Made by a program: the position numbers and the translations under genes
Part shown: piece by piece, positions 5,887 to 18,105 of the stretch
How the letters are laid out: each line of letters starts with the position of its first letter
How positions within the stretch are numbered: the stretch's first letter is position 1
From: an uncultured Clostridia bacterium
GTDB lineage: Bacteria > Bacillota > Clostridia > TANB77 > CAG-508
Direction of reading: 5' to 3'
NCBI GenBank assembly: GCA_904419495.1
Contig: CAJFRV010000007.1
Coordinates: 21,763-85,762 of the forward strand
Length of the DNA: 64,000 bases
The notes under the pieces: generated by a model
The model's database searches: none
What the model was told of the DNA's origin: nothing
Seen by the model: only the letters and a program-made list of their open reading frames with translations

Positions 5887-8800
5887 ATGAAATTTTCAAA
5901 GGGGAGAATGTTATTAGCAAAAGATGGAACACATGGTATCACTTTAATTGCACTGGTTATTACCATTATTGTTTTGTTAATTTTAGCAGGTATTAGTATA
6001 GCAACTTTATCAGGAGATAATGGTGTACTTACAAAAGCGGTAGAAGCTAAAAAACAGACTAAAATAGCAGAAGATACAGAAAATCTACAACTTTTATATG
6101 TACAAAAAGCAGGAGAAACAAAATACGGGGATCCATCAATAGATGAATACTTAGACTATGTAGAAGAAAAAGGATATCCGACTAAAGTAGACAACGGAGT
6201 CAGTTATGTAGAAGCAGATGGAAGTATCTATGAAGTTAGTATTGAAGATGGAGAATTGAAAGTAGATTATGTAGAAGAAGGTACAATTACTGATCCAAGA
6301 ATACAAAGAATAGAAATTGTAGAAAAAACTATGAATAGTATTAAGATATCTGTTATAGCATCAAGATTAGATGGCGGAACTTTCTATTATTATATAGGAA
6401 CAAGCGAAGATCAATTAGAAGAACAAGGAAGCGGTAAAGAAACAGAGTTCACATTTGAAAATTTAAGTCCGGGACAAACATATTATATTAAAGTAAAAGG
6501 TGTTACTACAGATGGAAGAGAAACAGAAAAAAATATAACAGCACAGATAGATTCTATACCAGATGCGGAAGGAAATATAACTTATGACATAAGATGGAAT
6601 AATGGAACAGCAACTGTTACTTTTAGAAGTACAAGTGGTTATACAATTGAAACAAGTAGAGATGGTTTAACATATACAAAAAGTTCTGTTGTAAGTGGTG
6701 TAGAAAATGGAGGAATTGTACGAGCAAGATTAACAAATGGAAACTTTGCAGGAAAAGAAATTACTGTAACAGTAATAGACTCTGAAAAACCAAAATTAAC
6801 ACTAAAAACAGGAAAAGTAACAAGTAAATCAATAGAATTAATTGCAACGGCAACAGATAATGAAAGTGGTGTTACGGGACAGTCATATAATTATTATATA
6901 GGAAAAGGTGGAGAAAGTAGCACGTTATCTGGAAATAATACAACAGGAAAATATACTTTTGAAAACTTAGATCAAAATACAACCTATGAAATTAAGGTAG
7001 AAATAGAAGATAGAGCAGGAAATAAAGCAACACAAACAATGGAAGCAAAAACAGAATTAATACCATCAGCTTCAAGTGCAATTCGTAGGAATGTTGTATG
7101 GAATGCAGATGGAACTGCACAAGTAACATTATCAACAGATACAAGTTACAACATTTTATATAATATAGATGGCGGTCAATGGGAATTATATTCAAATGCA
7201 TTATCTGTGACGAATGGACAAACAATTTATATGTGCTTAACAGACGGAAGAAATAGAGGAGAAGAATATGGATTACAGGTAATAGATAGAGATGGTCCAG
7301 AAATCACAGTGACAAGAGGAAAAATTACAACAAATTCTATAACGGTAAATGTAGAGGCAGAGGATAAAGGATCAGGATTACCACAAGGAAATACATACAA
7401 ATATTATATTAAATCAAGCAATGAATCAGATTATAGGTTAATAAAAGAAGGTGAAAGTAATACAACATTCACATTTACAGGATTGACTGCTCAAACAACA
7501 TATAATATTAGAGTAACAACAACAGACTTAGTGGGAAATGAAGGAAAAGGAGAAATAGATGCTACTACAAATGAATTTACTTATGTAACTGGTAATATTG
7601 AATTTAGTGAAATTCGTTGGGAAAACAAATTAGCAAATGTTACACTAACAAACAATACAGCAAATGCAATGGAATATAAAATCATTCCAAAGGGAACAGA
7701 AGTAGACTTAGGGGGAACATGGCAAACAGCATCTAATAAAACACAAACAGTAGGAAATTTAAAAGCTGGAGATATCATTCTTGCAAGATTGAATGATGGG
7801 GTTAATACAACAGGTTATGCAACATTAACTATCCAAGACACGATAAATCCAAGTATAGAAGTAAAAATTAGTAATGAACAATGGACCAATACATCTGTTA
7901 CCATAACTATTAATGCAACAGATAACGAAAGTGGATTACAAGAACAAGCTTATAGTTTTGACGGTGGTACAAATTGGCAAGCAGAAAATACAAAAACATA
8001 TGAACAAAATACTGCCGGAATTGTTATAAAAGTAAGAGACGAAGCTGGAAATGTGACAACATATAATACAATCAACATTACAAATATAGATAAAGACGGT
8101 CCAACAATGAATGTAGAAACAGATACAACATCAAATTCATTAACAGTAAATATTACATCTGTAACAGATGCTGGAATAGGACTAGAAGATACACCAACTT
8201 TTGTATATTATATAGCGACAAGTAGTGAAGCATTAGAAACCACAATAGGAGCTACAAGTACAGAAAAAACAAAACAATATACAGATTTAACGCAAAATAC
8301 AACCTATTATTTAAAAGTAGAAGTACAAGATAAATTAGGAAATGTAACAACTGTGTATAAAACAGTATCAACAGGATCATTAGATGCAAGTTCAGGAGAT
8401 GTTAATATAACAGATCCAGAATGGACAAATGGAAAAGCAAGTGTTAGAATTACGAATCAATCAGAATATGATTTACAATATCAAATCGTAGAAAATGGTG
8501 AGAGTTTTAATGAAAACGGAAACTGGACAAATGAAACGAATAAAGAAATGAATATTGGAGAATTAAAACATGGAGATGTTATATATGTAAGATTAACAGA
8601 TGGAAGCAATGTTAGTGGAACAATTATTAAAGAAATAAAAGATGTAGTAAATCCAACAATCACATCTGTAACAGGAAATCGTGAAGAATGGACCAATACA
8701 CCAATTACTTTAACGATTAATGCAACAGATAATGAAAGTGGATTACAAGAACAAGCATATAGTTTTGATGGTGGAAAAACTTGGCAAAAGGAAAATACAA

Positions 8801-11800
8801 AAATATATGAACAAAATACTGCTGGAATTGTTATACAAGTAAGAGATATAGCAGGTAATATAACAACATATGACACGATCGACATTACAAAGATTGATAA
8901 AACAGGACCAAGTATAACCATTGAAGAACAAGAAACAACAACCAATCAAAGTACAATCAATGTAAAGGCTACAGATAGTGGCGTAGGTATGGAGGAAACT
9001 CCAACCTACACCTATTACACAAAACAAGGAGAAGCAGAAAACTATACCAAAATAGAGGAAAATCAGAATACAACATATACATTTAAAAACTTAAAAGCAG
9101 GAACAACATATACCATAAAAGTCGAAGCAAAAGATACATTAGGAAATATAGGTGAGAAAACACTAGAAATTACAACAAGAAATTTATTATATTCAGTTGG
9201 AGATATTACGTTTACAGATATTATATGGAACAACGGAAAGGCAACAGTAACTGCAAATAATAAAATAGAAGAATATGATATGCAATATCAAATTGGGAAA
9301 GATGGAGCAAACATTAATTTAAATGGAGTATGGACAACAGTAAAAGAAAAATCAATACCAATTACCAATTTAGAAGATGATGATATTATTTATGCAAGAC
9401 TAACTGATGGTGTGAATGTAACTAGTGGGTATGCAACCTGTAATATTAGTAATATATCAAAAGAAACATACACAGAGGAAGAATTAGCAAAAGAAACAAC
9501 AAGAGCAGATTATGAAATATTAGGCATATCTGTAAATAATAATGAAATACGTGTACAAATTGATGGAAAAGAAGAGAATGGAGCATTATATAATTATTAT
9601 TACAAAACAGTTAATGATGATAAATATACATTAATTAGTACAAATACAAATTATAATGAGCCAGCAGTCATAACAGATATACAAGAAGGAACATTATATA
9701 AAATTAAAGCAACCATTATTGATACAGATGGAAATGTATCAAGAAGTGCGAATACAGCAACTACAATAGCACTGGGACAAGCAACTCAAAATACAACCTA
9801 TAATGACAATAGAACTTACATTGATAATAGTAAAGAAGTAGAAAATGCAGAAGGAAGTAAAGTAGTAGCTGGATATACAGTTAGTGTACCAGCAGGATTT
9901 AAAGTTTCAGAAACAGAAGGACAAAATAAACAAGAGGATGGGGTTGTATTAAAAGATAACAACGGAAACGAATATGTATGGATACCTGTTTATGATGCCA
10001 TATATGATGGTGTAACCAGTATGCCAACAAGTACAGGTACAGCAACTAGAACATATAAACCTATGGCAACTAAACAAACAGGAAAAGCGGGATATTACGA
10101 AAGTTTAATTTACACTTTTAATGGAACATTATCATATAGAAATTCAAGTAATACAGGAATCGGAAAAACAAGTTACAGAGAACCAAGTTTGATAACAAAT
10201 AATGCAAATGATGGATATACTTGGGATGTAACACAAACAGTAGGTGTAAACTATGATGCAGCAGAAGATTATTATAAAACAGTCTTAGGATTTGAAAGCG
10301 CAAAAGCTTTTGGAGAATATATGGCAAGTAGCTATAATGATATGATTATGTCAGTTGATTCTTATGGAGGTTTTTATATAGGAAGATATGAAACAACAGC
10401 AGAAGAAACAGGAGACGGTGTTGTTGTTGGATCACAAGCCAATAAAACGGTATTAGCTAACAAAAATTGGTATCAAATGTTGTTATATCAAGATAGTGAA
10501 AAATATACGAAAAATCCATACAACACAATTGCAAGTGCAAGAACAAGTATGGTTTGGGGAAACCAATGGGATGCTATGTTAAATTATGTTTTAAAAGGAA
10601 TGGATAGTACAAAAGTAACTGGAAAAACCGGACAACAGAAAAATACACCAAGCAATTCTGGACAAGATGCATCAGATGTCATGAATAATATATATGATTT
10701 AGGATCAAATCTATATGAATGGACACAAGAAGCAAATGCAACTAACTATAGAATTTATAGAGGAGGAAGCTATGATACAGCATCTTCAGGAAGAGCATAT
10801 ACAAGAAATAATGTTGTACCAATAGACCAAGGACCAGCATTTGGAACAAGACTAGGTTTATATGTTAAGAGTACAAATGATGTAACAGGACCGGTTGTAA
10901 CAATTAACCATACAACAGCAACCTCAAATACGATTACAGTAGATGTAACAGCAACTGACAAGGAAACAGGTGTAAGTAGTTATCGATATTCTATTAGTGA
11001 AAATGGTATGAATTGGACACAAGTTGCAGAAACAACAACAAATACCTATACTTATACAGGCTTAAAACAAAATACAAATTATTATATAAGAATTATAGCC
11101 GTTGACGGACAAGAAAATGTTGGAGAAGCAGTAGAAACACAAGTAAAAACACAAACATTAGGAAACATTTCAGCAACAGCCATTACCTTATCACAAAAAT
11201 ATGGACCAGATGGACAAGGAATTGTACAATTGAACTTAGAAGATACCTACAAGAATTCAGGATATCATATAGAAACACAAGTTGTAAAACCGGGTGGAAA
11301 CTTCACAGAAGATCAAGGATGGACATCAGGAGATACGGTATATAATTTATCAAATGGAGATAAAATTTATGCAACTGTATATGATGGAAAGAATCGTTCA
11401 GGGGATTATTTCGAATTAGTAGTAGACGGTTTAGAAGAATATGCTTATATAGATGAAGAAGGAAATACCTATACAGAAGAGGAAGCACAAAAAGAAGAAA
11501 ATAAAAATCAAACTACTTACGATACAACTATGAATTATACAGATGAAGAAGGAAATACTGCAACCATTCCAGCAGGATTTAAAGTAGGAATATCTGATTC
11601 TGTAAAAAGTATTAACAATGGACTAGTTATTCAAGATAACAAAGGAAACGAATATGTTTGGGTACCAGTAGAAGAAGCTATTGAAACAGATACAACAACA
11701 GATTCAGCCCAAAAAGCAATGGCGAGATATCAAGCAGGATATAGTAGTGGTTCAGCAAAGGAATTTTTTGAAGGAATTTTATATAACTTTACAGGAACAG

Positions 11801-14337
11801 CATCAACCAAGAGAAGTAATAAAGCAGTTTTAGGAACAAATGTATATAGAGAACCAACTTTAATTTCAGGTGGTGCAGACTATACATGGAATATTGCAAA
11901 TAATAGTTCTAAGGGACAAGGATATGACTTATTAGAACAATATTATAAAAATATGGGATTTGGAACAACAAGTGGTGTTAGTGCATTTAATAGTTATACA
12001 GAATTTGGACAATATATGAATGAAGAATATAGTAATATGTTAAAAAGTGTAGACAAACATGGAGGGTTCTATGTTGGTAGATATGAAGTGAGTACAGAAG
12101 GAAATTTAGTTACAAAGGATGCAGTTATACAATCACAAATTGCTAAAAATCCAATAGCTAATCAAAACTGGTATAAAGAATATTATTATCAAGACAGTAA
12201 TCTAAATCCAAAAAATCCATATTATCAATCATCAAGTGTAACAACTTCTATGATATGGGGAAGTCAATGGGATGCTATGTTAAATTGGATGTTAGATGAT
12301 GATAAGACAAGAGAGTTTGTAACATCTATTACAGGAAATCATACAGAAACAGTTGCACAGACAGGTTCATATTCAACAGACTTATCAAAAAATATCTTCG
12401 ACTTGAGTTCAAATGTAGGTGAATGGACACAAGAAGGACAAGGAACAACATATAGAATGGCAAGAGGAGGTTATTGTGTATTAACAACGGATAAATACAT
12501 TTTCAATGCAAGTAGTAGATATAATACATGGCAACCACCAACAATGACATCAGTATATTCAAATCCAACTTCTATAGGAACAGATACAAGTAAAAACTAT
12601 TTAGGATCAAGAACAGCAATGTATATCAAAGATACGACAGATACAACAGCACCAGAAATTTCAATAAATAGTAAAACAGCAGGTACAAACAATATAGAAG
12701 TAAATGTAACAGCAGTAGATAAAGAATCGGGAATTAATAAATACATATATGCAATTAGCTTAAAGAATTTTGAGGATACAGGATTTAACGAAGAAACAGA
12801 TATTTTACAAAAAGTTGAAACACATGGAAATACATATATATTTAATGAACTAACACAAAATCAAAGTTATTATATAAGAATACAAGCAGTTAATGGTGTA
12901 GGCGGAATAGCAACTGCCTATACCGGGCTTATAAAAACAGAAGTCTTGAATGTACAAGAAGGAGCTATTATTCAAGAAAAAGTATATGGAAAAAATGGGC
13001 AAGGAACGGCATATTATGAGATTAGTGGTGAAACGAACTTTGAAAATGAAGGATATTATATAGAATATCAAATAGATAAAGGTGGAACAACAGGATATCA
13101 GCCAAGTGGTAGTTGGACAAAAGGAAATACAGTTAATGGTTTATCAGTTGGAGATGTTGTATATACTAGAATTTATGATGGTGTTAACGATTCTGGATAT
13201 TATATGACTACTAACATTACAGAATTGGAAACTTTTTCAGAGGTTTATAAAGAAACAAAAATATATGAAGATATAGAAACAAATCCAGTAGAAGGTGGAG
13301 AGTCAGAGACAGAAGTTGTCGGAAGAGCATATATTCCAGCAGGTTTTAAAGTATCAACATCAAGTCTAACAAATAAAATTGCAAACGGATTGGTTATAGA
13401 AGATGAGGCAGGAAATCAATATGTTTGGATACCAGTAGAAAATGCTATATATGATGGAAAAACGACAATTTCAGCTAATTATAAACCAATGGCAAGATAT
13501 CAGTCAGGATATAATGAAAGTACGGCAGAGCAGTATTTTGAAGCAATTTTATACACATTTAGTGGTACAAGTTCAAGCAATTATTCATTAACTGGTTATG
13601 GATTAGGAAAAAGTTCATTTAGAGAGCCAAGTTTAGTAACAAATAGTACAGCAAATTATTCATGGGTATTTACTGCTGGAAATAATTATGATGCTACAAA
13701 TTACAATCAGTTAAGTCCATTAGGAATTAATAGTGCGACAGCAATGGGAACATATTTAAATGATAAATATACAGAAATGGTAGAAAGCATTGCAAAATAT
13801 GGAGGATTTTATGTAGGAAGATATGAAACAAGTTCTTGGGAAACAGATAACTGGGAAGCAGGAGGAACTAACAAAGATAATACAGGAGAAATTATAAAAT
13901 CTGTGCCAAATGCAACAACAATGGCATCAACAAACTGGTATAAGATGTATTTAAAACAAGATAGTAATTATACTTCAAATCCATATCATACAAGCTCAAG
14001 TGTAACAAGTTCTATGATTTGGGGAGCACAATGGGATACCATGTTAAATTATATATTAACAGGTTCAGATAAAGAGAAGGTAACAGCAGTAACAGGAAAT
14101 CACTCGGGAACTAGGGCTAAGACAGGACAATATGGAAGTGACATAATGAATAATATTTTTGATTTAAGCTCTAATGTAAGAGAGTGGACAAGCGAGGCTT
14201 CTGGAGCAACCAACCGTGTCTTTCGTGGAGGCTATTACGATACGGATGATCTCTATGCTTCAAGCATTCGCTATTGCTACAATCCTACGAATAGCTTCTA
14301 CCATATCGGTTCGCGTCTCTCACTTTATTTAAAGTAG
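5887..14337 (+). CDS. Giant (2816 aa) surface protein and DGR target. It has a prepilin-like N-terminal anchor, >10 Ig/Fn3-like modules and three FGE-sulfatase/C-type-lectin-fold domains; the last one carries the VR.
   Basis: The 8451-nt ORF is uninterrupted. The N-terminus KDGTHG|ITLIALVITIIVLLILAGISIATL resembles a class III (prepilin) leader but has Ala at +5. Modules recur with the motifs YY[IY]..., TTY.I.V and ATDNESG. The three CLec-type domains carry GGFY[IV]GRYE ... WG.QWD.MLN ... EWT ... R[IVM].RGG[SY]Y motifs. The C-terminal 134 nt pair with the TR. Confidence 0.85.
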   Translation: MKFSKGRMLLAKDGTHGITLIALVITIIVLLILAGISIATLSGDNGVLTKAVEAKKQTKIAEDTENLQLLYVQKAGETKYGDPSIDEYLDYVEEKGYPTKVDNGVSYVEADGSIYEVSIEDGELKVDYVEEGTITDPRIQRIEIVEKTMNSIKISVIASRLDGGTFYYYIGTSEDQLEEQGSGKETEFTFENLSPGQTYYIKVKGVTTDGRETEKNITAQIDSIPDAEGNITYDIRWNNGTATVTFRSTSGYTIETSRDGLTYTKSSVVSGVENGGIVRARLTNGNFAGKEITVTVIDSEKPKLTLKTGKVTSKSIELIATATDNESGVTGQSYNYYIGKGGESSTLSGNNTTGKYTFENLDQNTTYEIKVEIEDRAGNKATQTMEAKTELIPSASSAIRRNVVWNADGTAQVTLSTDTSYNILYNIDGGQWELYSNALSVTNGQTIYMCLTDGRNRGEEYGLQVIDRDGPEITVTRGKITTNSITVNVEAEDKGSGLPQGNTYKYYIKSSNESDYRLIKEGESNTTFTFTGLTAQTTYNIRVTTTDLVGNEGKGEIDATTNEFTYVTGNIEFSEIRWENKLANVTLTNNTANAMEYKIIPKGTEVDLGGTWQTASNKTQTVGNLKAGDIILARLNDGVNTTGYATLTIQDTINPSIEVKISNEQWTNTSVTITINATDNESGLQEQAYSFDGGTNWQAENTKTYEQNTAGIVIKVRDEAGNVTTYNTINITNIDKDGPTMNVETDTTSNSLTVNITSVTDAGIGLEDTPTFVYYIATSSEALETTIGATSTEKTKQYTDLTQNTTYYLKVEVQDKLGNVTTVYKTVSTGSLDASSGDVNITDPEWTNGKASVRITNQSEYDLQYQIVENGESFNENGNWTNETNKEMNIGELKHGDVIYVRLTDGSNVSGTIIKEIKDVVNPTITSVTGNREEWTNTPITLTINATDNESGLQEQAYSFDGGKTWQKENTKIYEQNTAGIVIQVRDIAGNITTYDTIDITKIDKTGPSITIEEQETTTNQSTINVKATDSGVGMEETPTYTYYTKQGEAENYTKIEENQNTTYTFKNLKAGTTYTIKVEAKDTLGNIGEKTLEITTRNLLYSVGDITFTDIIWNNGKATVTANNKIEEYDMQYQIGKDGANINLNGVWTTVKEKSIPITNLEDDDIIYARLTDGVNVTSGYATCNISNISKETYTEEELAKETTRADYEILGISVNNNEIRVQIDGKEENGALYNYYYKTVNDDKYTLISTNTNYNEPAVITDIQEGTLYKIKATIIDTDGNVSRSANTATTIALGQATQNTTYNDNRTYIDNSKEVENAEGSKVVAGYTVSVPAGFKVSETEGQNKQEDGVVLKDNNGNEYVWIPVYDAIYDGVTSMPTSTGTATRTYKPMATKQTGKAGYYESLIYTFNGTLSYRNSSNTGIGKTSYREPSLITNNANDGYTWDVTQTVGVNYDAAEDYYKTVLGFESAKAFGEYMASSYNDMIMSVDSYGGFYIGRYETTAEETGDGVVVGSQANKTVLANKNWYQMLLYQDSEKYTKNPYNTIASARTSMVWGNQWDAMLNYVLKGMDSTKVTGKTGQQKNTPSNSGQDASDVMNNIYDLGSNLYEWTQEANATNYRIYRGGSYDTASSGRAYTRNNVVPIDQGPAFGTRLGLYVKSTNDVTGPVVTINHTTATSNTITVDVTATDKETGVSSYRYSISENGMNWTQVAETTTNTYTYTGLKQNTNYYIRIIAVDGQENVGEAVETQVKTQTLGNISATAITLSQKYGPDGQGIVQLNLEDTYKNSGYHIETQVVKPGGNFTEDQGWTSGDTVYNLSNGDKIYATVYDGKNRSGDYFELVVDGLEEYAYIDEEGNTYTEEEAQKEENKNQTTYDTTMNYTDEEGNTATIPAGFKVGISDSVKSINNGLVIQDNKGNEYVWVPVEEAIETDTTTDSAQKAMARYQAGYSSGSAKEFFEGILYNFTGTASTKRSNKAVLGTNVYREPTLISGGADYTWNIANNSSKGQGYDLLEQYYKNMGFGTTSGVSAFNSYTEFGQYMNEEYSNMLKSVDKHGGFYVGRYEVSTEGNLVTKDAVIQSQIAKNPIANQNWYKEYYYQDSNLNPKNPYYQSSSVTTSMIWGSQWDAMLNWMLDDDKTREFVTSITGNHTETVAQTGSYSTDLSKNIFDLSSNVGEWTQEGQGTTYRMARGGYCVLTTDKYIFNASSRYNTWQPPTMTSVYSNPTSIGTDTSKNYLGSRTAMYIKDTTDTTAPEISINSKTAGTNNIEVNVTAVDKESGINKYIYAISLKNFEDTGFNEETDILQKVETHGNTYIFNELTQNQSYYIRIQAVNGVGGIATAYTGLIKTEVLNVQEGAIIQEKVYGKNGQGTAYYEISGETNFENEGYYIEYQIDKGGTTGYQPSGSWTKGNTVNGLSVGDVVYTRIYDGVNDSGYYMTTNITELETFSEVYKETKIYEDIETNPVEGGESETEVVGRAYIPAGFKVSTSSLTNKIANGLVIEDEAGNQYVWIPVENAIYDGKTTISANYKPMARYQSGYNESTAEQYFEAILYTFSGTSSSNYSLTGYGLGKSSFREPSLVTNSTANYSWVFTAGNNYDATNYNQLSPLGINSATAMGTYLNDKYTEMVESIAKYGGFYVGRYETSSWETDNWEAGGTNKDNTGEIIKSVPNATTMASTNWYKMYLKQDSNYTSNPYHTSSSVTSSMIWGAQWDTMLNYILTGSDKEKVTAVTGNHSGTRAKTGQYGSDIMNNIFDLSSNVREWTSEASGATNRVFRGGYYDTDDLYASSIRYCYNPTNSFYHIGSRLSLYLK
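14191..14324 (+). repeat. DGR variable repeat (VR) at the 3' end of the target gene
   Basis: It aligns base-for-base with 16324..16454. There are 16 differences, and 15 of them are at positions where the TR has A. It is GC-rich (cgt/ggc/tcg codons) compared with the host background. Confidence 0.85.
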
Positions 14338-14344
14338 CACTGGA

Positions 14345-14358
14345 CACGAAAGCCGTGA
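14345..14358 (+). promoter_or_regulatory. Short GC-rich hairpin immediately 3' of the VR (cacg-aaagc-cgtg), a candidate DGR target-recognition hairpin
   Basis: GC-rich inverted repeat 8 nt after the stop codon in an AT-rich context. The analogy is to the hairpin downstream of the Bordetella phage mtd VR. Confidence 0.25.
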
Positions 14359-14511
14359 ACTTGAACATATAAATGAATTAGTGGACATAACAAATTTTGA
14401 TAAGTAGAAATTAAAATGCTTCCTTAGAGTTGCTATATAATCCTAAGGAGGCATGTCCTGATAAAAATAGAACAATTGCATTAGAAAATAGATAAATAAC
14501 CCTTTCCTAAA

Positions 14512-14850
14512 TTTTCGAAGCAATTGTTCATATATAGGAAATTCATTTCCCATATATGAAAAGTCGCTTGCGACTAACAGTTGTACACAATTTTACGTAA
14601 GTAAAATTGATACAGGAACAAATACGCGACATGTAAGTAATTAAAAAACAAAAAAATTTTAATCATGTCGCTATTGTTCTTGTATAGGAAAAATCGAGTT
14701 TTTCCTATACAAGAACGTTGCTTCGCTCTAACAATTGCACACAAATTTTACTAACGTAAAATTTGGCGCCGAACAATGACGCAGGCTTTGAAATGTTATA
14801 AATAGAAAATCTTTAAAAAAGCCCGCTATTGTTCTTAAATAGGAATAGGG
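14512..14850. repeat. Tandem ~150-nt repeat (2.2 copies) in the VR-avd spacer; each unit carries a TATAGGAAA-family hairpin and a second hairpin caa(a)tttta-N6-taaaa(t)ttg
   Basis: Units start at ~14512, ~14666 and ~14820. The first ~95 nt of units 1 and 2 are ~70% identical. The perfect palindrome cttgtataggaaaaatcgagtttttcctatacaag lies at 14679..14713. Confidence 0.6.
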
Positions 14851-14900
14851 ACAGAGACGAAAATAACAATTGAAATAAAAAAGAAAAACAAAGGAAAATT

Positions 14901-15269
14901 ATGAAACAAGATAATGAATTAAAGCTCATACCAGCTTATGAGCAGTATATGGAATATATGATACAATTACTTATAAAATTGCCCAGAACAGAGAAATTTA
15001 GTATAGGTACAGAATTTAAACAAGTGATGTATAGTACATTAGAAGATATTATGTTTATAACAAAGTTAGATATGAATAAAAGATTAAGTTATTTAAATCG
15101 AATAGATGCAAAATTAAATGCACAAAGAATCATGCTAAGAGTTATGAAAAAATTTGCATGGATAGACATAAAGAAATTTGATATTGCAATGGGAAAAATA
15201 TATGAAATTGGTAAAATATTAGGAGGGCTTATTAAATATTATGCCAAAAACAATCAGAAATCAATTTGA
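14901..15269 (+). CDS. avd: DGR accessory variability determinant (Avd-like four-helix-bundle protein)
   Basis: 122 aa, basic, predicted helical, immediately upstream of the RT and overlapping it by 29 nt. This is the typical DGR position for avd. The assignment rests on context and size rather than strong sequence similarity. Confidence 0.55.
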   Translation: MKQDNELKLIPAYEQYMEYMIQLLIKLPRTEKFSIGTEFKQVMYSTLEDIMFITKLDMNKRLSYLNRIDAKLNAQRIMLRVMKKFAWIDIKKFDIAMGKIYEIGKILGGLIKYYAKNNQKSI

Positions 15270-16287
15270 TAAATATTTGACTTATGAAAAATTGTTAGAA
15301 GCACACAACAAATCTAAAAAAGGAAAATGTCGAAAAACAGAATTAATTCGATTTAATTTAAAACAAGAAGAATATATTATGTATTTATATCATCAGTTGA
15401 AGAATGGAACTTATAAACATGGTGGCTATACAGAATTTTACGTAACAGAACCTAAGTTAAGAAAAATAGAAAAGTCCAGATATATTGATAGAATCGTTCA
15501 TAGATGGCTTGTAGATAATTTTTTATTAAAAGGGTTTGCTAGTCAATTCATCAATACTTCTTATGCTTGCATAAAAAACAAAGGTATGCATAGAGCAGCA
15601 TTTAAAGTACAAGAATATATGAGAAAGGCAAAGGTAAATTGGGGAGAAAATTATTATGTTTTAAAAACAGATATTGCAAAATATTTTAATAGCATTGATA
15701 AAGAAATTTTAATAAAAATCTTAAAGAGAAAGATAAAAGATGAAAAATTGCTATGGCTAATAAATGAAATATTGTATGCCCAGAAAAGGAAAAAAGGAAT
15801 TGAAATAGGAAATTATACAAGTCAAATATTTGCCAATATTTATTTAAATGAAGTCGATCAATATATTAAACATGAATTAAAAGTAAAATATTATGTTCGA
15901 TATTTAGATGACAGTATATTACTTTTAGAAACAAAAAAAGAGGCTAAAGAAGTTTTATTTAAAATACAGGTATTTTTAAAAGAAAAATTGGAATTGGAAC
16001 TGAATAAAAAAACACAAGTTTTTAAAGGAAAACAAGGAATTAATTTTTGTGGATATAAAATTAATGAATATAGACTAAAATTAAGGGATAAGGGAAAAAG
16101 AAAACTAAAAAATAAAATTAAGAAAATGAAAAGTTATGTAAAAAAAGGAAAAATAAGTAGTCATGAGGCCAAAAGATATTTAGCAGGTCATATAGGTTAT
16201 GTGAGATGGGCAAACGTATATAATTTAATGAATAAATTATTTTATATAGAAGATAATCAGTTTACAAATAAGAAAAGCATACATTAA
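15241..16287 (+). CDS. DGR-type reverse transcriptase
   Basis: RT motifs are present: KTDIAKYFNSID (motif 2), IGNYTSQIFANIYL (SQ motif 4, diagnostic of DGR RTs versus QG in group II introns), YVRYLDDSILL (catalytic YxDD). 348 aa, no maturase or endonuclease domain. Confidence 0.9.
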   Translation: MPKTIRNQFDKYLTYEKLLEAHNKSKKGKCRKTELIRFNLKQEEYIMYLYHQLKNGTYKHGGYTEFYVTEPKLRKIEKSRYIDRIVHRWLVDNFLLKGFASQFINTSYACIKNKGMHRAAFKVQEYMRKAKVNWGENYYVLKTDIAKYFNSIDKEILIKILKRKIKDEKLLWLINEILYAQKRKKGIEIGNYTSQIFANIYLNEVDQYIKHELKVKYYVRYLDDSILLLETKKEAKEVLFKIQVFLKEKLELELNKKTQVFKGKQGINFCGYKINEYRLKLRDKGKRKLKNKIKKMKSYVKKGKISSHEAKRYLAGHIGYVRWANVYNLMNKLFYIEDNQFTNKKSIH

Positions 16288-16323
16288 CAAAATTCAAGAT
16301 TTAGATATAGGGATAAATCGAAG

Positions 16324-16454
16324 AGGCTAATGGAGCTACCAACCGTGTCAATCGTGGAGGCAATTACAATACGGATGATCTCAATGCTTCAAGCAATCGC
16401 AATAGCAACAATCCTACGAATAGCAACAACAATATCGGTTCGCGTCTCTCACTC
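16324..16454 (+). repeat. DGR template repeat (TR), downstream of the RT
   Basis: Non-coding copy of the VR with AAT/AAC at every diversified codon (it would read GATNRVNRGGNYNTDDLNASSNRNSNNPTNSNNNIGSRLSL). It shares the GC-rich 3' block atcggttcgcgtctctcact with the VR, a candidate IMH*. Confidence 0.85.
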
Positions 16455-16686
16455 TAATACTATTTCAGATTATATATTTTACGGAATATATACAGTAAAG
16501 TATTAGTAATAAAGAGATTTATTCCTTCCTGATAATTTGTGATATCATTTGTTTTTATATATAAAATTTAGAAAACGTAAATGGTGTTATAAGTAAGATG
16601 GTAAAAAATGATAAGAACAATATATGTTAGTAAATATATCGAATTGAAAATATATCATTGTTCGTAAAAAAATAAAGGATTGTAAT

Positions 16687-16953
16687 ATGAATAAATGTTT
16701 TTTTATGGGAAGAATTATAACAGATGTAGATTTTAAGTTTATGTTAGATAATAAAAATGATTCCATATCCACATTTAATATAGAATTGTCAAATACATCT
16801 ATTATAAAAGCAATTACTTTTAATGAACGAGCTGATTATAGCTATCGCAAATTGGAAAAAGAAGATATTGTACTTATAGAGGGAAGATTGGATTCAATGT
16901 TGAATGTTATTGTACAGGAAGTAGAAAAGCTAGATGTGATAAAAAATAAATAA
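16687..16953 (+). CDS. Small OB-fold SSB-like protein (truncated single-stranded-DNA-binding-like)
   Basis: 88 aa. The MNKCFFMGRI..D.DF.....ISTFNIEL...IKAITFNERA....KLEKEDIVLIEGRL pattern parallels the SSB N-terminal OB fold (MNRVILVGRL....F.LAV..R....DFI.CV.W...AE....L.KGS.V.VEGRL). The similarity is weak. Confidence 0.3.
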   Translation: MNKCFFMGRIITDVDFKFMLDNKNDSISTFNIELSNTSIIKAITFNERADYSYRKLEKEDIVLIEGRLDSMLNVIVQEVEKLDVIKNK

Positions 16954-16972
16954 TGCAAAGGAGAAATGAAAA

Positions 16973-17488
16973 ATGGAAGAAAGAAATACCAAAAAGGTAA
17001 AACCAAAAAATACAAATAAGAAAAAAACGAGGTCTATGAATGTATGGATGCTTATATTATTAGTAGCGATTATAGTGGTAGTAATTGTCATTGTGATAAA
17101 CAATAAAAAATCTAAAAAAGAAAGTGCAAATACTGCAAATGGAGAAAATACATCTAATAGTTATGTTGAAGAAATTGAAGATGGTGTAAAGATTAATAAG
17201 AGTACAAGATTAAATGAAGCAAAAGAAATAGATGGTCTAACAGTTGCCAATATTCAATTAACAACAGAAAGTGGAATGACAACACTTTTAGCAGATGTTA
17301 CAAATAATTCAGGAGCAAGAACAGAAGTAAAATCAATAGAGATTACATTATTAAGTGAGGATGGAGCAGAATTAACAAAGGTAACAGGAATTATAAATGC
17401 ACTAGAAGCAGGAGAAACAACACAATTAAATATAGCAATGACTTCTGACTATGTAAATGCATATGATTTTAATATTAATATAAAATAA
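16973..17488 (+). CDS. Hypothetical membrane-anchored protein (Lys-rich N-terminus, one TM helix, Thr-rich beta-type extracellular domain)
   Basis: ORF with TM segment WMLILLVAIIVVVIVIVI; no recognisable catalytic motifs. Confidence 0.45.
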   Translation: MEERNTKKVKPKNTNKKKTRSMNVWMLILLVAIIVVVIVIVINNKKSKKESANTANGENTSNSYVEEIEDGVKINKSTRLNEAKEIDGLTVANIQLTTESGMTTLLADVTNNSGARTEVKSIEITLLSEDGAELTKVTGIINALEAGETTQLNIAMTSDYVNAYDFNINIK

Positions 17489-18105
17489 TTATTGTTTTGT
17501 TAATTTTAGCAGGAGTAACAATTGCAACATTAACAGGAGACAATGGGATATTAACAAGAGCAAATAATGCAAAAGAACAAACAGAAAATGCAGAGGAAAA
17601 GGAAAAAGTAAAATTATCATCAACAGCAGCACTAACAAAAGCAACTGGAGAAGAAATTAATCAAGAAGACTTAGAAGAAGAACTTGGAGAGTATTTTGAA
17701 ACAGGGAAATACGCAGTAGAAGAAGGAACAAATGAAGATGGAATAGAAGGATATGTAGTAACAATAACAGAAAAAGATCCAAATGGAAGAGAATATTTTG
17801 TAGACAAAAATGGAGCAATGTCAGAAACAGCAGATAAGGAGGATTCACGAACAATCACATTTTATATAAACGATATAAGTTTTGAATGCCTAGAGGGAGA
17901 AGTATGGGGAGACTGGATTACATCAAATGAAGAATTATTAAGTCAAAATGGATTTGCTGATTTAGCAACATTACCTATGTGGGGGAGCGTAATAGGAATT
18001 TATTGTGGTGGTGGTTTATTGGAACCATATCTTTCAAATGAAACAGGTAGTAATGTATTTGTAGACGAACAAATTCAACATTTGCATAAATATAGATGGG
18101 AGTAA
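17488..18105 (+). pseudogene. Promoterless 5'-truncated paralog of the DGR target gene. It starts exactly at the conserved TM-coding segment (IIVLLILAGVTIATLTGDNGILT) and has no ATG or leader.
   Basis: nt 17488..17513 are identical to 5975..6000 of the giant gene (attattgttttgttaattttagcagg). The frame opens only 4 codons upstream, after a stop. The downstream 200 aa are unrelated to the giant protein body. Confidence 0.5.

Follow-up and report, generated by a model that had tools for sequence, protein, structure and literature searches.

The 64-kb window analysed here (the whole stretch of 64,000 nucleotides from contig CAJFRV010000007.1) contains a canonical, chromosomal diversity-generating retroelement (DGR) of an uncultured human-gut Clostridia species, made up of the accessory variability determinant gene avd, a reverse transcriptase (RT) gene, a template repeat (TR) located 3' of the RT gene and an RT-14 RNA (Table 1). 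Its target gene codes for a giant protein of 2816 amino acids (aa), the C-terminal part of which consists of three paralogous lectin-like domains of the C-type-lectin (CLec)/FGE fold, here termed D1, D2 and D3. With a probability of roughly 0.9, this DGR rewrites D3 only, D1 and D2 are fixed paralogues derived from the same triplication, and the GC-rich island at the 3' end of the target gene is the imprint of the TR.

The variable repeat (VR), which ends 10 nucleotides (nt) before the target stop codon, is 87% identical to the TR, and 15 of the mismatches are located at TR adenines, all of them in codon position 1 or 2. The two mismatches at other bases are a synonymous T-to-A change at 14208 and a C-to-T change at 14325, where the repeats start to diverge. 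A match to the TR in the tail of the third domain only had been proposed in the first-pass annotation, and the alignment confirms it, although the coordinates then given (14191..14324) were 3 nt off. Variation was followed over positions 5887-16700 (10.8 kb) in 11 nearly identical conspecific assemblies, namely the window and ten others from independent gut metagenomes, found by their exact Avd protein; these assemblies are consensus sequences, with one VR each per sample. Barring upstream and contig-end artefacts in L087 and L088, each assembly shows 0-4 differences from the window outside the VR. Within the VR, 39 of the 134 sites vary (291 per kb), and TR adenines account for 36 of these; eight distinct alleles are found among the 11 assemblies. 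No polymorphic site occurs across the 11 assemblies in the D1 tail, the D2 tail, the D2 core, the TR, avd or the RT gene. Eight VR alleles on a near-clonal background, as read from consensus assemblies, argue strongly for ongoing mutagenic retrohoming, and the earlier view of a D3 continually overwritten from the TR beside untemplated D1 and D2 domains is borne out by both the population data and the cross-species comparison.

The three remaining VR polymorphisms (14199, 14208 and 14241) lie at TR thymines, all in codon position 3, so that either the mutagenesis is not strictly adenine-only or some drift has occurred; they may represent non-canonical misincorporation beside adenines. Two of them are T-to-A changes (GCT to GCA) directly 5' of a TR adenine, and the change at 14199 recurs in three VR alleles. 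One VR allele is common to L082 and L084 and another to the window, L079 and L081; the window itself may have been taken from assembly L079. As alleles recur across samples or studies, VR alleles can be stable enough for sharing or transmission.

The D1 tail (10729-10869) is co-linear with the VR and of the same length, with 27 residues separating RGG from GxRL in both, and it shares 40% nucleotide identity with the TR, with mismatches at all four bases. In the D2 tail (12433-12630), an insertion of ~19 aa is present relative to the VR, and no alignment to the TR is obtained. The TRs of all related loci likewise failed to match the D1 and D2 tails, and the GC-rich 19-mer common to VR and TR was not found in either tail. 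Both tails use AGA for Arg, and the conserved residues of the two domains are held in A-rich host codons (AGA, GGA, ACA), which would be scrambled if a DGR acted on them. The suggestion that these tails carry host codons and do not align with the TR at the nucleotide level is thereby upheld; neither an adenine-specific alignment of D1 or D2 to the TR nor a rise in GC content extending beyond the VR was observed. It could be argued that D1 and D2 are additional VRs, copied at low efficiency from the TR at 16323..16456 or from a TR outside the window, since they are paralogous to the VR-bearing domain, remote targets are common in DGRs, and in the related locus L011, where a cassette is absent within 10 kb, the D3 tail matches a related TR. 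Virtually no credence can be given to this explanation in view of the 0 polymorphic sites in their tails against 39 in the VR, the low identity of the D1 tail to the TR with mismatches at all bases, the lack of the 19-mer, the scaffold residues encoded by A-rich codons that adenine mutagenesis would destroy, and an ordinary synonymous divergence from the related locus L001.

Between the window and L001, the ratio of nonsynonymous to synonymous divergence (dN/dS) is 0.11 for the D1 tail, 0.33 for the D2 tail and 0.77 for the D3 tail, with dS values of 0.42-0.47 for D1 and D2. Host codon usage and purifying selection thus mark D1 and D2 as what appear, on sequence evidence, to be fixed, functional domains that have not decayed. 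At larger evolutionary distances the D1 and D2 tails evolve faster than the cores, with dN/dS reaching 0.95-0.98 in some pairs, as might be expected of degenerating, functionless relics of duplication. That they are such relics is very unlikely, however, as all orthologues, from at least 12 species-level metagenome-assembled genomes (MAGs), have an intact reading frame and the full set of scaffold motifs, the tail dN/dS of the closest pair is low, and the structural model of D2 is confident and has the same fold as D3. Furthermore, loops and binding faces of lectin domains often evolve fast, and a raised rate is normal for them. Where the first-pass annotation had left the choice between fixed lectin domains and decayed former VRs, the former description stands, and decay is contradicted by the retained orthologues, the tail dN/dS values and the confident folding of D2.

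The GC content of the VR is 0.463, against 0.317±0.030 (maximum 0.396) in 134-nt windows of the rest of the gene (z = 4.8), and the 60-nt GC profile rises near 14170 and falls after 14330, the borders of this island being those of the TR/VR homology. A GC-rich VR island within an AGA-using gene, as had been suspected, is hence confirmed by windowed GC, with sharp edges at the VR. The TR is itself a GC island (0.448, with flanks of 20-23% GC), and the island recurs in seven related loci. The composition of the target gene as a whole is 32% GC and 44% A. Arginine is encoded by CGT or CGC in all four VR codons, compared to seven of the 62 in the rest of the gene; leucine is encoded by CTC, which is absent elsewhere among the gene's 126 leucine codons; and for threonine, alanine, proline and valine the NNA codons are replaced by A-free ones. 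The 30 TR codons other than AAY (Y, pyrimidine) contain 15 adenines, where 32.7±2.3 are expected from the synonymous usage of the gene given the amino acids (P < 5e-5), and the TR has a GC count of 60 against an expected 39.1±2.3, while the D1 and D2 tails fit the expectation. Scored as a z value, synonymous A-depletion in the window is -8.0 for the VR, +0.8 for the D1 tail and +1.9 for the D2 tail, and the VR is the sole strong outlier along the target gene. Across 10 species, the D3 tails range from -8 to -13, the D1 tails from -2.6 to +0.8 and the D2 tails from -2.5 to +1.9.

DGR mutagenesis is established to be adenine-specific, and the recoding of the scaffold away from adenine would follow from this: scaffold residues would survive only in adenine-free codons, and homing would stamp this recoding onto the VR. 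The VR is GC-rich because the scaffold codons of the TR avoid adenine, within an A-rich gene. The attribution of the island to overwriting consequently holds in so far as it is an imprint of the TR, but overwriting alone is insufficient, as the TR scaffold has been synonymously recoded. GC-rich constant flanks of TR and VR have been noted earlier (PMC5758913). Horizontal acquisition of this segment or its amino acid composition, unrelated to templating, could also produce a local rise in GC content; the D3 tail is rich in Gly, Arg and Ser, and the D1 tail is also slightly above the background (0.358 vs 0.316). Such an origin is extremely improbable, given that the excess persists after conditioning on the amino acids, with the D1 and D2 tails at their expected values, that the borders coincide with the TR/VR homology, that the TR within its AT-rich flanks forms an island too and that the same pattern occurs in every orthologue.

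The three domains are 337-364 aa in length, somewhat below the ~370 aa first estimated, and share 47-49% pairwise identity. RGG is found at aa 1625 (D1), 2193 (D2) and 2780 (D3), and all three tails close with G(S/T)R..(L/M)Y(I/V/L)K, in keeping with the original description of three paralogous C-terminal domains with common RGG and GxR..YxK motifs. A repeat search of the window identified ~16 co-linear nucleotide repeat families across D1-D3, spaced by ~1700 nt. The uniform layout that had been ascribed to all three modules applies to modules 2 and 3, whose order is Fn3, Ig-like, lectin-like; module 1 has the Ig-like domain first, and its Fn3 domain directly adjoins the lectin-like one.

A scan of species-representative genomes identified the three-domain protein in at least 12 species-level MAGs of uncultured gut Clostridia, each domain being orthologous to its counterpart, with identities down to 40-48%. 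In all seven related loci with the cassette on the contig (L001, L010, L012-L015 and L021), the TR pairs with D3 only. D1, D2 and D3 together form one clade against the single-domain homologues in a neighbour-joining tree (100/100 bootstraps), and as each of them forms an orthologous subclade, the triplication predates the species; the domains thus appear to derive from one ancient triplication. The homologue search returned 1463 matches, a family without Pfam annotation, and the complete members examined among L024-L078 are single-domain proteins of ~400-600 aa. Grafting of the cassette and VR tail onto D3 from another family member was also considered: in L069 the RT is 68% and the lectin-like domain 28% identical to that of the window, a disproportion too small to decide the matter.

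In L011 (10839-10977), the D3 tail aligns to the TR of L010, a related locus, with 20 A and 4 non-A mismatches, and neither avd nor RT is present within 10 kb, while only avd or RT fragments are left in L003 (8551-8682) and L017 (948-1152). In some orthologues the DGR cassette has been lost or displaced. In L014 (10869-11041), a 1-nt indel of the VR relative to the TR shifts the frame and changes the end of D3 to ...RLLLRSYVYLYVLRFTSCTLFE; either the assembly is wrong at this point or faulty homing has inactivated the target. Several contigs ending in D2-D3 or D3 are found within single MAGs, namely CALXUX (L004, L005, L006, L008) and CALXJY (L009, L017, L018). Their tails have GC contents of 0.34 to 0.46, all with CGT Arg codons, and these contigs represent either a set of paralogous giant proteins or strain variation at the VR that interrupted the assembly.

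D1 and D2 may formerly have been VRs, in that an ancestral domain was DGR-targeted, its internal copies escaped templating and their codon signature was erased by ordinary mutation. The chances of this are put at a little short of even; it concerns history only and does not conflict with a fixed state of D1 and D2 today. VR-type A-depletion (z < -4), scored over the last 47 codons, is observed in the tails of 24 of the 32 single-domain members with complete C-termini. The depleted set takes in nearly the whole sister clade of D1+D2+D3, and a cassette within 10 kb is present only in L069; by parsimony the ancestor was thus a DGR target. This argument is weakened if targeting is easily gained, perhaps by homing or recombination among paralogous tails, and some nodes of the neighbour-joining tree are weakly supported. 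The tails of L055 and L061 are TR-related but show many non-A mismatches to the TR of the same MAG, which suggests that VRs have been lost repeatedly within the family, and the AT-drifted tails of L004 and L008, which keep CGT codons, fit a loss of templating. The co-linearity of the D1 tail with the VR, including the shared 27-residue spacing, and a published target with three tandem FGE-sulfatase domains, all of them VRs (PMC3521204, PMC5758913), also accord with such a past. Against it, no signature is left in D1 or D2 in any of the 10 species (z -2.6 to +1.9), and their Arg codons are AGA, barring single CGT, CGA or AGG codons in five tails, whereas orphaned D3 tails keep CGT codons.

The 24 depleted tails suggest either widespread targeting in trans or orphaned VRs. 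More speculatively, and on balance doubtfully, synonymous A-depletion could serve as a sequence-readable fossil record of targeting, by which most family members (24/32) would be targets now or recently, in trans, and D1 and D2 would be VRs frozen after internal duplication. If so, a single polypeptide could gain two fixed specificities, and keep one adaptive probe, by a 'diversify, then fix' route.

Pfam gave no match for D1, D2 or D3 even at E <= 10, including the FGE-sulfatase/SUMF1 family (PF03781), and NCBIfam and PDB sequence searches with D1-D3 were also negative; the FGE-sulfatase label first applied to the domains is thus not supported by sequence profiles, and the fold assignment derives from structure prediction only. 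The AlphaFold model of D3, based on an alignment of 89 sequences, has a predicted local distance difference test score (pLDDT) of 95.2. Its best Foldseek matches in the PDB are FGE, CarF, TvpA (2y3c), TaqVP and Mtd, at E values of 2e-4 to 3e-3 and template modelling (TM) scores of 0.23-0.37, and the top 50 PDB matches all belong to one superfamily (E 2e-4 to 3e-2, probability 0.94-1.0 for all but one, TM 0.16-0.37). The D2 model (pLDDT 89.8) shows the same order of secondary structure elements as D3, with lower confidence in the tail insertion, and its best Foldseek matches are TaqVP and FGE. D2 and D3 are accordingly predicted to adopt the C-type-lectin/FGE fold of DGR variable proteins, the structure prediction called for at the outset having returned this fold for both. 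The VR-encoded residues map to the last five beta strands and linking loops of the D3 model. The catalytic Cys pair of FGE was not found in the C-terminal segment of the domains: the D1 tail has no Cys, D2 has one that is unconserved in the orthologues, and the sole Cys of D3 is situated at a DGR-variable codon. Without a conserved Cys pair, D1-D3 would therefore be binding domains and not FGE enzymes.

The target protein begins with a basic stretch and a hydrophobic helix (GITLIALVITIIVLLILAG), followed by repeated Fn3 and Ig-like domains, of which fn3 is recognised by Pfam at 72 bits. The N-terminus is weakly PilA-like (NCBIfam PilA, E = 0.049, 13.6 bits against a cut-off of 400), and the Pfam N_methyl family was not matched there. 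The motif GITLIxLVxTIIVLLILAG at the N-terminus is common to the single-domain homologues and is present in the consensus of 89 homologues. The target protein is probably displayed on the cell surface, although the pilin-like N-terminus scores below the family threshold.

In the proposed working of the system, mutagenic retrohoming would copy the TR, with its adenines randomised, into the last 134 nt of D3 only. The 14 AAY codons of the TR alone would allow about 15^14 (about 3e16) variants of the putative binding face. Selection would meanwhile exchange A-containing synonymous codons in the TR scaffold for A-free ones (CGT, CTC, GTC, GCT, ACG), while D1 and D2 would today be ordinary, slowly evolving lectin-like domains of fixed sequence, with neither TR homology nor a GC-rich 3' element. 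The domains may bind ligands, and labour may be divided between the fixed pair and the adaptive domain. Several points weigh against the reading of the locus given here. These are the VR polymorphisms at TR thymines; the recurrence of two VR alleles in different samples, with only one consensus VR available per sample; the modest TM scores of the best Foldseek matches together with the lack of a Pfam FGE-sulfatase match; a TR search that covers 64 kb of a genome in which a second TR may lie elsewhere; and the sub-threshold pilin-like N-terminus, which leaves surface display as the probable case.

The mechanism itself is canonical, and the system belongs to the DGRs of the TvpA/FGE-like target class. 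In TvpA-type targets, the C-terminal VR belongs to a lectin-like domain that is itself nested within an FGE-sulfatase-like one (Wu et al. 2018, PMC5758913). As in the TvpA-type DGRs of Treponema denticola (category 'b', PMC5758913), the VR comprises the last ~45 codons of an FGE-like lectin fold, the TR is AAY-rich, Avd and RT are present and the context is cellular rather than phage. Unlike in the TvpA type, the domain of the present target is not recognised by Pfam FGE-sulfatase, includes an additional beta-rich part at its N-terminus and is the last in a multidomain protein of 2816 aa, where two paralogous copies that are not diversified precede it, and the TR is located downstream of the RT gene and followed by the RT-14 RNA. 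In Marichromatium purpuratum 984, MarpuDRAFT_1558 contains three tandem FGE-sulfatase paralogues in one open reading frame (ORF), all of them VRs (Schillinger et al. 2012, PMC3521204; Wu et al. 2018, PMC5758913). This protein likewise combines three tandem paralogous FGE-like domains on one polypeptide with one DGR, but only the last domain is a VR in the present target, with no TR homology, polymorphism or codon signature in D1 and D2. Stable non-VR paralogues beside DGR targets have been described as separate genes (Schillinger et al. 2012, PMC3521204); there too, stable copies persist beside the diversified one, whereas the stable and diversified copies are here fused in one protein that is kept across at least 12 species-level MAGs. 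Bacteroides DGRs diversify type V pilus tip adhesins (bioRxiv 10.1101/2024.11.15.621889) and resemble the present system in that a chromosomal DGR of a commensal of the gut acts on a probable surface fibre or adhesin, with variation almost wholly at TR adenines in AAY codons. They differ in phylum and target family, and the pilin-like N-terminus here is a weak resemblance.

What is new is the fusion of two fixed paralogues and one diversified paralogue in one conserved giant protein, and a target family unseen by annotation. With three homologous binding domains per chain, of which one is under DGR hypermutation, the target protein constitutes a natural internal control. It is suited to the study of the cis requirements of a DGR target, of the cooperation of fixed and adaptive lectin-like domains in a gut commensal surface fibre and of the lifetime of the TR codon imprint once templating ends. 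It also flags a large, Pfam-invisible lectin-like family in gut Clostridia, many members of which appear to be DGR targets.

Table 1. Features of the DGR locus, in positions of the 64-kb window
Feature	Position	Strand	Evidence
DGR target gene	5887..14337	+	ORF list and translation
D1, first CLec/FGE-fold paralogue	9859..10869 (aa 1325-1661)	+	Protein alignment
D2, second CLec/FGE-fold paralogue	11539..12630 (aa 1885-2248)	+	Protein alignment
D3, C-terminal CLec/FGE-fold domain carrying the VR	13306..14334 (aa 2474-2816)	+	Protein alignment, AlphaFold, Foldseek
Variable repeat (VR), GC-rich, adenine-poor	14194..14327	+	TR alignment, population polymorphism, GC
IMH-like GC-rich element, 3' end of VR	14305..14323	+	19-mer identical in VR and TR
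Spacer repeats between target gene and avd	14500..14850	+	Repeat search, fold z, copies elsewhere
avd, accessory variability determinant	14901..15269	+	Pfam PF22296 bAvd, 64 bits (cut-off 40), E = 1.8e-17
DGR reverse transcriptase	15241..16287	+	Pfam RVT_1; IGNYTSQ (IGxxxSQ) and YLDD in translation
Template repeat (TR)	16323..16456	+	TR/VR alignment; invariant in 11 assemblies; homologous TRs in eight related loci
Rfam RT-14 RNA motif	16452..16663	+	cmscan, 71.2 bits vs gathering score of 48.1

The DNA is that of a low-GC bacterium, and the chromosomal context of the cassette is evident from the neighbouring genes, with fabF, accB and fabZ (Pfam) upstream of the target gene and PFK and aldehyde dehydrogenase genes in the 3' direction on same-species contigs. 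The search of the 64-kb window yielded no second TR or VR. A local search places the RT-14 motif at 16452-16542 (69.5 bits), beginning in the last five bases of the TR, and it probably represents the structured 3', priming part of the DGR RNA. The GC-rich 19-mer occurs in the window only in the VR and the TR, which part from 14325 onwards (VR CACTTTATTTAAAG, TR CACTCTAATAC), and this difference in their ends is kept in eight related loci. The TR 3' end CACTCTAATAC.ATTTCAG is kept in nine loci, and the VRs end in CACTTTATTTAAAG. By its sequence, the 19-mer with its unlike ends resembles an initiation of mutagenic homing (IMH) element and its TR counterpart, IMH*. In the Bordetella phage DGR, a hairpin/cruciform is found 3' of the VR; directly 3' of the VR in the window, a candidate cruciform or hairpin was rejected, as its fold does not surpass those of shuffled controls (z = -0.8).

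Between the target gene and avd, a spacer of 563 nt contains ~2.5 copies of a unit of ~150 nt, with two strong hairpins per full unit (DNA fold z -4.7 and -6.3). In L001, L046, L047 and L056, copies of this unit are found at unrelated sites; the spacer of L001 is only 214 nt in length. The hairpin repeats were rejected as a DGR element and are probably outside the DGR, because copies are situated at unrelated positions and the spacer of the closest relative lacks them. The unit looks like a small dispersed palindromic element (of the miniature inverted-repeat transposable element or repetitive extragenic palindromic type) that has been inserted there. Directly 3' of the DGR, at 16687-18105, three small ORFs (88, 171 and 202 aa) are encoded, which are kept in the same-species contigs that reach this region, and the product of the 171-aa ORF contains an N-terminal membrane helix and a weak match to the FxLYD domain.

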